Assembly (NCBI GenBank): GCA_039715015.1
Contig: JBDLIE010000059.1
Span: forward strand, 1-15,464
Length of the DNA: 15,464 nucleotides
Reading direction: 5' to 3'
Source of the DNA: Thermodesulfobacteriota bacterium
Lineage (GTDB): Bacteria > Desulfobacterota > Desulfobulbia > Desulfobulbales > SURF-16
The first letter of the stretch is position 1. Every line of letters starts with the position of its first letter. The position numbers and the translations under genes are program-made. Under the pieces are notes generated by a model, which ran no database searches, was not told where the DNA came from, and saw only the letters and a list, made by a program, of their open reading frames with translations. Below, one piece after another: positions 1-11,689 of this stretch.

Positions 1-20
1 TAACATTACAATATACGGCG
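1..20 (-). other. attI: Candidate integron attI recombination site (truncated by window edge)
   Basis: The minus strand reads ...CGCCGTATATTGTAATGTTA-end. GTTA (4..1) is the start of a GTTRRRY core and is the only minus-strand GTT in the 162 bp upstream of intI. It is in the canonical position and orientation, upstream of and opposite to intI. A degenerate L box (CGTATAT/GTATATT) lies 5-6 bp before it. The last 3 bases of the core are outside the window. Confidence 0.7.
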
Positions 21-114
21 TGGGGTAATCGGTTATCGATTGGGGGCGGGGTATTCTAATCGGGCCCATGCTTTGTAATCGTATTTAGGGTTGCTAATTG
101 TTCGAATATTTTGG

Positions 115-143
115 ACTATGAAGTATCTGTTTTGTTAAGTCAA
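115..143 (-). promoter_or_regulatory. Candidate sigma-70 cassette promoter (Pc) firing toward attI
   Basis: Minus strand TTGACT (143..138), 17-bp spacer (137..121), CATAGT (120..115). The -35 matches 5/6 and the -10 matches 4/6, keeping the conserved A2 and T6. It points at the candidate attI about 110 bp away. Confidence 0.55.
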
Positions 144-162
144 TGAAAAAGGGTGTCAGGTT

Positions 163-1488
163 ATGGATTGGAATGCTTATGATGAACGAGTTGCTGTGGC
201 AGGCGTTCCTAGCAATCGTATCCAGTGGTATGGGCGATGGGCGCAGCGATTTGTGAAATTTTTGAGAGGTGATGTGGCTAAGACTGGGCCACATCAGGTC
301 AACGAGTTTCTGCGCAAACTCTATCATCGAGAGTTTCGTGAGGAGTGGCAGCTCATGCAGGCGGCTGAGGCATTACGATTGCTTTTTGAACAGGTTGGTA
401 ATGGACCATTGCTTGCTGTTTGGGATAAAAAGGTAGTTGTGCCTGGCCAGGTTATGCAGCAAGACGTTGGTGCCAAACTGGAATTTAAGGAGAAAAGAGC
501 CTCGCTTATAAATAAGCCGGTGCATGAGGTTGAGAGGGATATCCTGGAGCTGGTGCGGAGTGTTGCCCGGCTCAGACATTACTCGCCGCGCACTGAGCAG
601 TCCTATGAGGGGTGGATAAGGCGTTTTTTGTTTGAGAATCAGGGAAAGATGCTGGTCAAGCTCGGCGCTGCTGATGTTCGTGTTTTTCTCGAGTATTTGG
701 CTCGCAGGAAAAAGGTGGCGCCAAGTACTCAAAACCAGGCCTTAAACAGCCTGGTCTTCTTTTTTGATCAGGTTCTGGAGCGAACCTTGGGTGATATCGG
801 CAACTTTGCCCATGCTAAGAGATCAAAGCATTTACCTGTGGTACTCAGTGTTGACGAGGTACAGCGCCTGTTTTCCTGTTTGGCTGGTCTGCATCAGATC
901 ATGGCTGGCACGCTGTATGGCAGTGGCTTGCGGCTTATGGAGTGTATGCGTTTGCGGGTTATGGATGTGGATTTTGACCGTCAGGAGATCATAGTGCGCA
1001 ATGGTAAGGGTAAAAAGGATAGGGTGACCATTTTGCCGGGCCGCCATGTTCAGGCCTTGCAGGAACATCTGGAGCAAGTGAGGATGATCCATGATCGTGA
1101 CCTTGCCTTTGGCAATGGTAATGTCTATTTGCCTGAGGCATTGGCCCGAAAGTATCCAGGGGCCAGTAAGGAGTGGGGCTGGCAGTTTGTGTTCCCGGCC
1201 AGCAGAAATATGGTTGATAGCAGGAGTGGTGAGGTGCGGCGTCATCACCTGCATGAGAGTGTGTTGCAGCGCGCCATAAAGAAGGCTTCAAGTGAGGCGG
1301 ATATTGCCAAAAAGGTGAGCTGCCATGTGTTGCGTCACTCCTTTGCCACCCATATGCTGGAGAGTGGCTATGATATCCGGACCATTCAGGAGTTATTGGG
1401 CCATAGTGATGTGAGCACCACCATGATCTACACCCATGTCTTGAATAAAGGGGGCAAAGGGGTGCGTAGTCCGCTGGATAGTTTGTAG
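163..1488 (+). CDS. intI: Integron integrase (tyrosine recombinase), long form with N-terminal extension, 441 aa
   Basis: Catalytic residues are intact: R257 (YGSGLR), K282 (GKGKKDR), H388-x-x-R391 ([10 protein letters not shown]), LLGH414 and Y423 (TTMIYTHV). The IntI-specific insertion [26 protein letters not shown] is present, as is the typical C-terminus GVRSPLD. Confidence 0.97.
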
Positions 1489-1502: not shown

Positions 1503-1548
1503 CCAATAAAAAAGCCCGGGCCATGATGGCTGCGGGCTTTTTTATTGG
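1503..1548. terminator. Bidirectional intrinsic terminator between convergent intI and valS
   Basis: Perfect 16-bp inverted repeat CCAATAAAAAAGCCCG (1503-1518) / CGGGCTTTTTTATTGG (1533-1548). A6/T6 tracts flank the GC stem, so both strands have a U-tail. Confidence 0.9.
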
Positions 1549-1566: not shown

Positions 1567-4233
1567 TTAGGCCAGGTCCTGGAGACGAGCGATGGAGTCG
1601 TCGATCTTGCTGAGTTTAGTGGTAAACTCTTCGAGCTTGGCCTTTTCTTTGGCAATGATGTCATCCGGGGCATTGGCCAGGAATTTCTCGTTATTAAGTT
1701 TGCCGTTGGTCTGGTTGTATTGCTTGTCTATCTTCTGCTTGCTCTTGTTAAGCTTAGCAATCTCCTTGTCGACATCGATCAGGCCCTTGAGGGGCACGTA
1801 GATCTCCATGTCTTCGAAGATGTAGGTAGCTGCGCCCTTGGGTACGGCGCCCGACTCGATAATTTCCAGGCTTGAGGTGCGGGTAAGGCCCATGATGGAG
1901 GTGCTATGCTCCCCAAGGCGCTGGCCTTTCTTAATGTCCGGGCAGATGGCAAAGGCCTCGATTTCGGCGGAGGGATGGATCTGCATCTCGCTTCTGATAT
2001 TACGGATACCACCGATGACGCCCATGATTAACTCGGCAGTCTCTTCAGCTTCGTTGTCATCCCAGTCCGGATTGGCCACCGGGTACGACTCGGTCATGAT
2101 GGTGGAGCGTTCACCTGGCAGAAAATGCCAGATCTCCTCTGTGACAAAGGGGGCAATGGGGTGGAGGAGTTTGAGGACGGCCTCAAGGACGGTGAAGAGC
2201 ACGGCCTGGGCCTCTGCCTTCTTGGTCGCATCGTCACCATAGAGGTCGGACTTGGTCCACTCCAGGTACCAGTCGCAGAACTCATGCCAGATAAACTGGT
2301 AGATACTGGAGGCGGTGTCGTTAAAGCGGAAGCCGGCCAGGGAGTCGTGGACCTCGTTGATCGCCTTGTTGAGGCGGCTTAAGATCCAGCGGTGGGCCAG
2401 GGCCATCTCTTTGGGCTGCACGTCGGCGGTGACGCTGGCGTCACAGGAGTTGATGTGCATCAGGCTGAAACGGGCGGCGTTCCAGATCTTGTTTATAAAG
2501 TGGCGGTAGCCTTCGATGCGTTCCTCGGAGAGCCTGATATCACGGCCCTGGGCGGCAAAGGCGGTCATGGTATAGCGCAGGGCATCGGTGCCATACTCAT
2601 CCATCACCACCAGGGGGTCAAGGACATTGCCGGTGGATTTGGACATCTTTTTGCCGTGCTTGTCGCGAACCAGGGCATGGAGGTAGACGTCCTTAAAGGG
2701 CACCTCATCCATGAAGTGGAGGCCCATCATCATCATCCGTGCCACCCAGAAGAAGAGGATGTCAAAGCTTGTGATCAGCACTGAGGTGGGGTAGAAGAAT
2801 TTCAGTTCCTCGCTGTTGTCCGGCCAGCCCAGGGTGGAAAAGGGCCACAGGGCTGAGGAGAACCAGGTGTCAAGGACATCGGTTTCTTGGCTCAGCTTGC
2901 TGGAGCCGCATTTGTCACAGCTGCTGGGGTCTGTTTCTTCCACCATGAGCTGGCCGCAGTCATCGCAGGTCCAGGCCGGGATCTGGTGGCCCCACCAGAT
3001 CTGGCGGGAGATACACCAGTCGCGGATATTGTTCATCCAGGCGTAGAAGGTGTTGTCCCAGGTCTTGGGGTGGATGTTGATATCGCCGCTGTGCACCGCT
3101 TTCACGGCCTTATCGGCCAGCGGTTTTACCGAGACAAACCATTGCAGGGAGGTGGTGGGCTCCACCACGGTGTGGCAGCGGTAGCAATTACCCACGGCAT
3201 GGTCGTAATCTTCGATTTCTTCTAGAAAACCCTGCTCTTCAAGATCGGCAACGATTTTCTTACGGCAGTCAAAACGGTCGAGACCAGCGTAGGCGCCGGC
3301 CGCGTCATTCATAATGCCGGAGTCATCCATGACCTTGATGATCTCCAGGTCGTGGCGCAGGCCGATTTCATAATCGTCGCGGTCATGGGCCGGGGTGACC
3401 TTAAGGGCGCCGGTGCCAAAGTCGCGCTGGACATGGTGGTCAAAGACCACGGGGATGGTGCGGTCGGTGAGGGGCAGTTTGATGCCGATATCTTTGAGGT
3501 GGTTGTAGCGTTCGTCATCAGGGTGGACGGCCACGCCGCTATCACCGAGCATGGTCTCAGGGCGGGTGGTGGCGACGATTACGTGGCCTGAGCCATCGGC
3601 AAAGGGATAACGGATATGGTAGAGTTTTCCCTTCTTGTCTTCGTGTTCAACCTCGTCATCAGCCAGGGCCGTGTGGCAGCGGGGGCACCAGTTGACGATA
3701 TAATCGCCTTTGTAGATCAGGCCTTCCTTGAAGAGGCGGACAAAGACGGTGCGCACGGCCTTGGACAGGCCTTCATCCATGGTAAAGCGTTCCCGGTCCC
3801 AATCACAGGAGCAGCCCAGATGCTTGAGCTGGTTGATGATGGTGCCGCCTTTTTCTTGACGCCACTGCCAGACCCGTTCGATGAATTTATCGCGGCCCAG
3901 GTCATGGCGAGTTTTGTCTTCGCTGGCAAGTTGGCGTTCAACAACATTCTGGGTGGCAATACCGGCATGGTCGGTGCCAGGAACCCAGAGGGCGTTAAGG
4001 CCCATCATCCGTTTATAGCGGATAAGGACATCCTGCAGGGTGTTGTTTAAGGCATGGCCAACATGGAGAACGCCGGTGACATTGGGGGGCGGAATAACAA
4101 TGGAGAAGCTGTCGCGTTCCGGGTCCATCTTGGCGCTGAAGGTTTTGTCTGCCTGCCAGGCGGCGTACCATCTCTTCTCTACTTCTTTGAACTCATAGGC
4201 CTTGGCCAGGGTTTCTGGGCTGCTTGTATCCAT
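1567..4233 (-). CDS. valS: Valine--tRNA ligase, 888 aa
   Basis: PPPNVTGVLHVGH (HIGH motif), GTDHAGIATQ, DWCISRQIWWGH, DVLDTWFSS, KMSKS motif, and a C-terminal coiled coil with KLNNEKFLANAP. Confidence 0.99.
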   Translation of the reverse strand: MDTSSPETLAKAYEFKEVEKRWYAAWQADKTFSAKMDPERDSFSIVIPPPNVTGVLHVGHALNNTLQDVLIRYKRMMGLNALWVPGTDHAGIATQNVVERQLASEDKTRHDLGRDKFIERVWQWRQEKGGTIINQLKHLGCSCDWDRERFTMDEGLSKAVRTVFVRLFKEGLIYKGDYIVNWCPRCHTALADDEVEHEDKKGKLYHIRYPFADGSGHVIVATTRPETMLGDSGVAVHPDDERYNHLKDIGIKLPLTDRTIPVVFDHHVQRDFGTGALKVTPAHDRDDYEIGLRHDLEIIKVMDDSGIMNDAAGAYAGLDRFDCRKKIVADLEEQGFLEEIEDYDHAVGNCYRCHTVVEPTTSLQWFVSVKPLADKAVKAVHSGDINIHPKTWDNTFYAWMNNIRDWCISRQIWWGHQIPAWTCDDCGQLMVEETDPSSCDKCGSSKLSQETDVLDTWFSSALWPFSTLGWPDNSEELKFFYPTSVLITSFDILFFWVARMMMMGLHFMDEVPFKDVYLHALVRDKHGKKMSKSTGNVLDPLVVMDEYGTDALRYTMTAFAAQGRDIRLSEERIEGYRHFINKIWNAARFSLMHINSCDASVTADVQPKEMALAHRWILSRLNKAINEVHDSLAGFRFNDTASSIYQFIWHEFCDWYLEWTKSDLYGDDATKKAEAQAVLFTVLEAVLKLLHPIAPFVTEEIWHFLPGERSTIMTESYPVANPDWDDNEAEETAELIMGVIGGIRNIRSEMQIHPSAEIEAFAICPDIKKGQRLGEHSTSIMGLTRTSSLEIIESGAVPKGAATYIFEDMEIYVPLKGLIDVDKEIAKLNKSKQKIDKQYNQTNGKLNNEKFLANAPDDIIAKEKAKLEEFTTKLSKIDDSIARLQDLA

Positions 4234-10336: not shown

Positions 10337-11131
10337 TTATGCCCTTAATGATCTATTGGGCATTTTTTCATGATCATTACCTGGTTTCATTTTCAGTTGT
10401 TGGTCAACTATGGCCTTGTCCGCAAGTTTTCTGATCAGCGGAGCGAGGCGCTGGTGATGTTCAAGGGTCTTCTCGATCATCTTTCTCATTTCCTGTGAAT
10501 GATCCCTGATTGGTTCAACCTCTTCTGAGGTCAGGTGAGCCATCCCTTGTTTTCTCTTATCTAGATAGCTGAGAATCTGCTGCCACTGGGCCTGACGATG
10601 GCGGGCCAGGGCCTGCTCTTCGCTGTGATCTGTTTTGGCAAGATCAGCTGCTGCATAGGGGTGCTGGCTGGTGATTTTGCTGGCGGTAATTTCAGCCTTG
10701 CTGAAGGTGGCGGATAGCGATGAAAGTGATCCCAGGTCCCCAAGATTAAGGGCACCGGCCACGGCCTGCTCCAAGTCGCCTTGATAGAAATCTTCAGCAA
10801 TCAGCGAAAGGGCGTCAAAGAGTTCGCCGATATCTTTAAGCTCTTCCTCACTTAAATCGCCCTGTACTTCATATGAAAAACTGTGGTTGTCGAGGCTCTG
10901 GCTCTGAAGAGCTGTTGCCTGTGAGGAGCTGGTTTGCCATTGGCTATAGCTGCTATGGGCCATATGGCTGGTGCTGCGCTGCAAGGAAACAGTATCACCA
11001 TCACTGGTGGTGATATCGATAGAAGCTTTTTCAAAGCTGGCGTGAACCTGGGTTGCTGATGTCTTGAAGGGCTGCAGGTCAGCTGGGTAGGAAGCAAGGC
11101 TGTTGAAGGCGGCTAAAGGTGAAAGGGCCAT
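10337..11131 (-). CDS. Hypothetical protein, 264 aa, sigma-28 promoter-preceded
   Basis: Long ORF with SD AGGAG 7 nt before the ATG. It has a Ser/Thr/Gln-rich N-terminal half, an acidic core (SIDITTSDGDTV...FSYEVQGDLSEEELKDIGELF...DFYQGDL) and a helical C-terminus, with no signal peptide or transmembrane segment. Confidence 0.85.
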   Translation of the reverse strand: MALSPLAAFNSLASYPADLQPFKTSATQVHASFEKASIDITTSDGDTVSLQRSTSHMAHSSYSQWQTSSSQATALQSQSLDNHSFSYEVQGDLSEEELKDIGELFDALSLIAEDFYQGDLEQAVAGALNLGDLGSLSSLSATFSKAEITASKITSQHPYAAADLAKTDHSEEQALARHRQAQWQQILSYLDKRKQGMAHLTSEEVEPIRDHSQEMRKMIEKTLEHHQRLAPLIRKLADKAIVDQQLKMKPGNDHEKMPNRSLRA

Positions 11132-11237: not shown

Positions 11238-11689
11238 TTAAGGAAGAACGACCAGGCAGTGGTCCTCACCGGTCAGTTTTTCATCGATGATTGCGACAAT
11301 GATTCCCCCGTCGCCACCGCAAGATCTGCGCCTATTTGGGAATAACAAATTTTTTACCAGAAAATTGTTATTTGATTTGGGCCAGAGCGCTGCGGATGGC
11401 TTCATAGTCGGCTTGGATGGTGGAGCTTGAATAATGAAATTGGCTGTAAGCGTTAATTATAAAGATGATATGGCCGTTTTTTGTTGATTTGGGCGCCAGA
11501 GAGAGTGCCGAGTTTATTGCGGTCTCCTTCCTGGGGGGCCAGGTCAGCCTCACAGGCATCCGGGAAAACATCTTTAATGGCTTTTGCTATACCGGCCCCC
11601 ATGGTGCAAAAGCAATTGCCGCCGTGAATAATGACATCAACATAATTATCCTGGGCAAGCTCAATGAGGTTGCCGGTGATAGTTTTCAT
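11238..11689 (-). pseudogene. Disrupted macrodomain (ADP-ribose / Appr-1''-p processing, Poa1p-like) gene, about 150 aa when reconstructed
   Basis: Successive frames give MKTITGNLIELAQ...IIHGGNCFCTMGAGIAKAIK, then IINAYSQFHY...ADYEAIRSALAQIK*QFSGK, then KICYSQIGADL, then GGDGGIIVAIIDEKLTGEDHCLVVLP* (stop 11238-11240). Lesions: +1 in the A6 run at 11477-11482, TAA at 11368-11370, -1 near 11350-11355 and -1 near 11319. Confidence 0.88.

Follow-up and report, generated by a model that had tools for sequence, protein, structure and literature searches.

What does an integron integrase do with a second domain of the core-binding (CB) type in front of the usual one? The question is raised by an intact intI gene at the left end of the window, that is, the whole stretch of DNA analysed (15,464 nucleotides). 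The gene, its parts and its surroundings are as follows.

1..16, minus strand: attI core, with the L box at 16-10, a 5-bp spacer at 9-5 and then G/TTA, the stroke marking the putative crossover.
17..162, no strand: putative accessory and promoter region of attI; TAATCG occurs at 26, 57 and 76 and TAATTG at 95.
163..1488, plus strand: intI, an intact open reading frame for an integron integrase of 441 aa.
163..402, plus strand: extra N-terminal domain of predicted CB fold, residues 1-80 with the fold reaching to about residue 90; signature W22 (226-228), W62-Q63 (346-351) and Q66 (358-360).
403..537, plus strand: variable linker, residues 81-125, partly helical in the model.
538..777, plus strand: canonical CB domain, residues 126-205, with the R-x-R-H-Y-S-x-R-T-E and S-T-Q-N-Q-A motifs intact.
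838..1488, plus strand: catalytic domain, with the catalytic residues and the integron-specific insertion.
1503..1548, no strand: hairpin with perfect 16-nt arms, A/T runs on both sides and a folding z of -6.8, likely a bidirectional terminator between intI and valS.
1567..4233, minus strand: valS (valyl-tRNA synthetase), convergent with intI and marking a fixed chromosomal position.

By score, catalytic residues and insertion, the protein is a member of the IntI family. Residues 128-441 reach 451.8 bits against TIGR02249 (integron integrase; cut-off 265), and the tyrosine-recombinase catalytic residues R257, K282, H388, R391, H414 and Y423 are all present. The best solved relative is VchIntIA (2a3v; E 1.5e-84), to which the catalytic domain aligns gap-free except for one residue; this alignment runs through the integron-specific insertion, where alignments with XerA break. 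A translation start at 163 is supported by conservation: the ATG is also kept in two relatives, and W3 (97%) and Y6 (89%) are conserved among homologues in line with it. A database gene call (P0002) puts the start about 30 codons downstream, which would remove the conserved first helix of the extra domain.

The original prediction held that the N-terminal segment is a SAM-like domain with motifs that pair by eye with those of the CB domain, and proposed separate Pfam searches and a structural superposition of the two. Residues 128-210 match Pfam Phage_int_SAM_4 strongly. Residues 7-78 match the same family with an E value of 2e-5 at 25.3-25.9 bits, just below the gathering score of 27 bits, which the extra domain of the 441-aa protein thus does not reach; among 21 homologous N-terminal segments, 19 match it at E ≤ 0.1, the best at 4e-11. 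BLASTP aligns the extra domain with the CB domain of the same protein (32% over 59 aa, E 0.001), and profile-profile comparison of the 21 segments with the 21 matching CB domains gives a probability of 97.7% over 83 columns (E 1.5e-12), so that the paired motifs are indeed in register. The best match of the extra-domain profile among PDB sequences is VchIntIA residues 10-88 (E 3.7e-5). Modelled alone by AlphaFold2, the segment forms four CB-like helices (pLDDT 90.4, pTM 0.82). In a structure search over 48,161 chains, VchIntIA 2a3v is among the top matches (Z 12.6, rmsd 2.6, 89 residues aligned) and the archaeal Xer protein XerA, 4a8e, ties at the top (Z 12.6, rmsd 1.6, 85 aligned), the top 26 rows being almost entirely CB domains of tyrosine recombinases. 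Foldseek gives the same ranking, yet zero matches at E ≤ 0.001. Sequence comparison and modelling together confirm the extra segment as a homologue of the CB domain with a predicted four-helix CB fold. The linker that had been put at about 48 aa has this length (residues 79-126) but is coil only in part, with a predicted helix at 102-115 and a pLDDT of about 72 over residues 91-110. Among relatives the linker ranges sixfold in length, from 16 to 104 residues in 116 representatives, and holds a semi-conserved F-R-D motif. The full-length model has high local confidence and a pTM of 0.61, against 0.82 for the domain alone, which together with the linker lengths fits a tethered module.

Across an alignment of 116 homologues, from which five short or self entries were excluded, the CB domain keeps R136, R138, Y140-S141, R143-T144-E145, R154, a basic residue at 183 and S188-T189-Q190-N191-Q192 at 84-100%. 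In the extra domain the R-x-R, Y-S-x-R-T-E and S-T-Q-N-Q motifs are lost, and only the equivalents of Y148, W151 and Q192 are kept; S147, S188 and T189 of the CB domain, small residues that clamp the backbone, correspond to W22, W62 and Q63, and Q192 is kept as Q66. These four residues, at CB-equivalent places on helices B and D, are themselves conserved in the 116 homologues (W62 and Q66 100%, Q63 97%, W22 94%) and in 150 cluster representatives (W62 95%, Q63 96%, Q66 98%, W22 77%), a set that was chosen by the profile and is hence biased. The net charge of the extra domain is +3.1 and is positive in 91% of the 116 homologues; none of its basic positions is conserved (best 62% K/R), whereas the CB domain has five at 91-97%. 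Since the conserved CB motifs are gone, any binding of DNA by the extra domain cannot follow the canonical CB mode; contact with DNA as such is plausible from its sequence. In Cre, helices B and D are the recognition helices, and K86 and Q90 at the start of helix D contact major-groove bases, according to the available passages of two papers (PMC5766204, PMC3575804). W62 at the start of helix D and Q66 (i+4) share the spacing of Cre K86/Q90, as mapped by helix position and not by superposition. In VchIntIA, W157 contacts an extrahelical base of attC, as an available part of the report states (PMC2095811). W22 and W62 are probably exposed at the surface. The cores of long and short integrases differ at positions 129, 161, 163, 195, 215, 349, 351 and 358, and F215, L349, V351 and V358 are hydrophobic residues specific to the long ones. 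Residue 163 of the protein is His in 26 of 27 short integrases and not in long ones.

The original prediction of a tandem duplication stands in that the two domains are homologous, but not as a recent tandem event. In a joint tree of 91 domains (82 columns), the 33 extra domains all fall in one group (SH-aLRT 100), away from every one of the 58 CB domains; of the CB domains that belong to long forms, 32 of 33 cluster at 86. As the extra domains group apart from every CB domain, the duplication is ancient, and a recent or local one was ruled out. Fusion of the CB domain of a relative is a possible source. Several independent origins had been considered after a first quick tree of 78 cores, in which long forms fell in three places and near the Xer root. 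After removal of 19 redundant, truncated or outgroup rows, a tree of 59 rows that held one long clade together was not rejected and had the higher likelihood (p-AU 0.52), and with two Xer outgroups (47 rows) such a tree gained 20.5 log units (p-AU 0.76). A single long clade thus scored higher with or without outgroups, and independent origins were set aside. The long forms, whose monophyly the original prediction had put up for testing, are compatible with one origin, but the clade is not proven; a single ancient duplication or fusion behind the long forms, with the root unsettled, is the simplest reading of the trees. Purifying selection on the segment was found as anticipated: each of the 12 pairs compared has a dN/dS within 0.07-0.37, and several are close to saturation at synonymous sites. 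The rate of change of the extra domain is two to three times that of the CB domain.

Long forms, defined as ≥410 aa, make up 115 of the 119 best homologues, the protein itself being left out. The extra-domain profile matches 1,216 clusters (50% identity) at E ≤ 1e-10 and 4,101 at E ≤ 0.001, the latter including ordinary CB domains among the weaker matches. Within the phylum, 131 of 401 genomes match it at E ≤ 1e-6, which is an upper bound because of such ordinary CB domains. Of 61 close relatives, an integrase match is present in 42 and a long form in 23 (two result sets cross-read), so that about a third of the Desulfobulbales-level genomes searched carry the three-domain integrase. Short integrases often co-occur in genomes with long ones. 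Some long forms carry the labels Nitrospirota, Verrucomicrobiota and Gammaproteobacteria. The matching plasmid records number at least 5000, and just one of them, NZ_CP020372.1 (a 485-kb Thiodictyon plasmid), carries a long form, which lies beside bacteriochlorophyll genes. Of the best 150 profile matches, 118 have an IntI core after the domain, and 32 seem to be cut or frameshifted. A weak search among short proteins gave no stand-alone gene for the extra domain (0 of 9 candidates), and two lone copies that were inspected are remnant-like; Atlas clusters of 95-111 aa with the domain exist and may be fragments, and lone forms of it may exist. No fusion of the extra domain to other enzymes was seen in 30 loci of the phylum, with proteins of up to 772 aa covered. 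A decayed second copy of the extra domain, interrupted by two stop codons and not followed by an integrase core, was observed at G000:C86:21-242.

The gene lies in divergent orientation to attI, which sits on its 5' side, and valS follows its 3' end. From the layout of the attI core, the crossover presumably falls between positions 4 and 3, and bases 1-3 would come from the first cassette, itself off the contig. The resemblance to two relatives ends precisely at TAAC, after which these read GTTATGC and GTTATGT; the contig thus appears to break at the crossover, leaving the cassette array off the contig. The same order of AAC, five bases and L box also precedes many other intI genes. In the region 17..162 one weak sigma-70-like site points toward the array (143 to 115, minus strand), and the count of promoter-like sites there is two, at chance level (mean 1.7). 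The TAATCG/TAATTG repeats and inverted boxes of the attI region are retained in two relatives. The hairpin at 1503..1548 was not picked up by a terminator scan. As intI adjoins valS also in two relatives of the same genus and in the nearest named relatives, which are Desulfurivibrionaceae records, the locus is read as a sedentary chromosomal integron. Rfam gave no match within the window. Two further open reading frames of the minus strand were observed in the window: one of 78 aa (11453-11689), without a Pfam match and possibly a truncated gene, the start of which we take to resemble a macro-domain protein, and a Ser/Gln-rich one of 264 aa (10337-11131) without a Pfam family.

Sequencing run X1, a possible source of this DNA, gives a main and longest contig that also starts at base 1. 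Its summed depth is 77.8 in bases 1-54 and 54.3 beyond, and three records overrun contig ends, one of which accounts for the right end. At least two different first cassettes would seem to be present in the population, hence recent activity. Apart from this hint of active first-cassette exchange, the locus is not special within the long-form clade. Hairpins of attC type lie near the starts of contigs C20 (1650-1721) and C66 (3089-3175), which are unlinked to the intI contig. Lower-GC cassette-like genes were observed in both, with a VapB/PIN pair and DUF2459 in G000:C20:1-2500, which begins GTTAGC, and with DUF6602, an acyltransferase-SGNH fusion and a cation-efflux gene in G000:C66:1-3800. 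The starts of the two contigs are likely tails of cassette arrays.

The original prediction had drawn from the extra domain a changed recognition of sites and a mechanistically distinct subclass of integrons, and on neither count do the loci lend it support. Sites of attC type, 57-129 bp long and on the divergent strand, accompany 10 of 15 long-form loci (one of them doubtful; one 432-base long-form locus was left out of the scan) and 3 of 5 short-form loci. Sites beside long and short integrases look alike, and a special attC class for long forms was rejected because those beside them are ordinary. Of 41 long loci 25 had a scorable attI core, as did 20 of the 32 short ones; in these related rows, and with a test that misses repeats of the attI1 kind, inverted L-box copies occur in 12 of 25 long versus 16 of 20 short loci and direct copies in 9 long versus 5 short ones. 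No long-specific motif upstream of intI was seen by eye in about 40 regions. L-box copies, inverted or repeated, were observed between the crossover and intI beside long as well as short integrases (L072-L078, L061, L064, L082, L083), often right after a TATAAT-like hexamer; self-repression of intI through such copies is possible. As for LexA, the source genome (99.99% completeness) encodes no full-length protein, just the C-terminal half of a LexA-like one. Overall, 17 of 61 relatives possess full LexA, as do 6 of the 23 with long forms, and two long forms sit directly upstream of lexA. The extra domain as a substitute for LexA control was rejected, LexA being equally frequent in long-form hosts. 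Scans for LexA boxes with two motifs showed no pattern. In 7, probably 8, of the 17 genomes with LexA, a full-length lexA was observed directly downstream of intI and on its strand, behind long and short integrases (G013:C122, G033:C38, G042:C8, G044:C198, G048:C56, G050:C59, G057:C194, probably G043:C436). Collectively, none of the tests of attC, attI boxes and LexA points to a new cis-element, attC class or SOS substitute, and a mechanistically distinct subclass is doubtful.

What the extra domain does is tentatively read here as an accessory grip on DNA, with unpaired or distorted DNA as the ligand, although we hold this with less than even confidence. It would be an old, diverged CB copy that acts as a tethered module and helps to load or hold ordinary attI and attC rather than to read a new site. 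The grip might be formed by a face of helices B and D, with the aromatic W22 and W62 plus Q63 and Q66. Unpaired or distorted DNA, for instance an attC hairpin or a junction of single and double strand, would fit an aromatic face of this kind better than a regular major groove would. The CB homology and fold, the near-invariant W62, Q63 and Q66 with their Cre-like spacing, the net basic charge, the selection, the signs of a tethered module, the ordinary attC sites and the tryptophan with which VchIntIA grips an extrahelical attC base are counted in favour. On the other hand, no basic position is conserved, which would suit a protein-binding face as well, and short integrases function without the domain, often in the same genomes. 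The long-core hydrophobics F215, L349, V351 and V358 might serve for docking, but common descent accounts for them just as well. As the main rival reading, it is possible, if rather unlikely, that the Trp/Gln face docks on the catalytic domain of the same protein, on a neighbour in the tetramer or on a host factor and tunes activity, and a damping of activity in hosts without SOS control, as an example of this, is similarly doubtful. Protein contact would agree with the loss of the basic and hydroxyl residues of the CB domain and the gain of two tryptophans on one face, with the long-specific hydrophobic core positions and the F-R-D motif of the linker, and with a nearly complete source genome lacking full-length LexA. 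It agrees less well with the net basic charge of the domain and the sixfold variation of linker length, and long forms are not enriched in LexA-less hosts, two of them even lying directly upstream of lexA.

The invariant residues are at base-reading positions of helix D, which, with the repeats and inverted boxes kept in two relatives, would also suit the idea of the original prediction, a sequence-specific arm-type binder of sites near attI or the intI promoter that sets direction or autoregulation. An invariant reading head leads one to expect a shared motif across long-form loci, but none emerged by eye from the upstream regions, and extra L boxes are as common or commoner beside short integrases, albeit in a crude test on related rows; we regard this idea as improbable. 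Very improbable is a tolerated relic or folding aid with no role in recombination. The faster change of the extra domain would be expected of a relic, and a large N-terminal tag leaves IntI1 activity unchanged, according to the part of the report available (PMC2095811). Against it stand the purifying selection in every pair, the near-invariant polar residues and the retention across several phyla and more than 1000 clusters at 50% identity. Returning to the accessory grip, a broader picture, speculative and rather unlikely as a whole, would be an old integron clade of more than 1000 clusters in Desulfobacterota, Nitrospirota, Verrucomicrobiota and some Gammaproteobacteria, active in this population, in which the Trp/Gln face takes hold of single-stranded DNA, hairpin DNA or a host factor and sets the balance of capture and excision. 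If true, it would be a control layer absent from all integrases studied so far. As the signature consists of only three or four residues, the role is directly testable by deletion and point changes.

The mechanism of integrons rests on a few two-domain enzymes, and the three-domain form is mentioned once in the literature found. No functional study of the extra domain was found in that literature, which hardly extends to subscription journals, and the available passages of six papers (PMC4889954, PMC9668308, PMC8876359, PMC3108266, PMC7790495, PMC8371274) give no account of it. VchIntIA (IntI4, 2a3v), IntI1 and IntI3 share with the present protein the CB and catalytic domains, the insertion, the catalytic residues, a divergent attI and ordinary attC sites; unlike them, it has about 120 additional N-terminal residues with a second domain of predicted CB fold. 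In inverted (reverse) integrons, attI is at the 3' end of intI and the cassettes are co-oriented, whereas attI here is 5' of intI. Arm-binding recombinases such as lambda Int and ICE integrases also have an extra N-terminal domain before the CB and catalytic domains, according to passages of one paper (PMC8138268), but the extra domain here is predicted to be an all-helical CB fold, and a crude test found no dedicated arm-like site. A group of integrases of clade 15 (Deltaproteobacteria) was described in 2008 as about 120 aa longer through a gene fusion that may be functional (PMC2426708, passages available). By description they agree with the long forms in the excess of about 120 aa, in a single origin and in host group, and the long forms here very likely belong to the same clade. 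The available passages speak of 'gene fusion' and neither name nor test the added domain, which is identified here as one of predicted CB fold. The long IntI is thus a real, uncharacterised variant of a known system, of which the size was noticed in 2008. New here, from the alignments, are the loss of the CB motifs and the near-invariant W62, Q63 and Q66, with W22, on helices whose counterparts in CB domains are turned to the DNA. RitA, the recombinase in trio, likewise has two CB domains ahead of the catalytic domain, and in the passages available two sequential CB domains are said to occur only in RitA and to be absent from all other tyrosine recombinases (PMC8138268). A long IntI with tandem CB domains contradicts this restriction. 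RitA belongs to a different subgroup and to three-gene elements, whereas the gene here is a single recombinase gene between attI and valS, and the long IntI would add to RitA another tyrosine recombinase that has, independently, CB domains in tandem.
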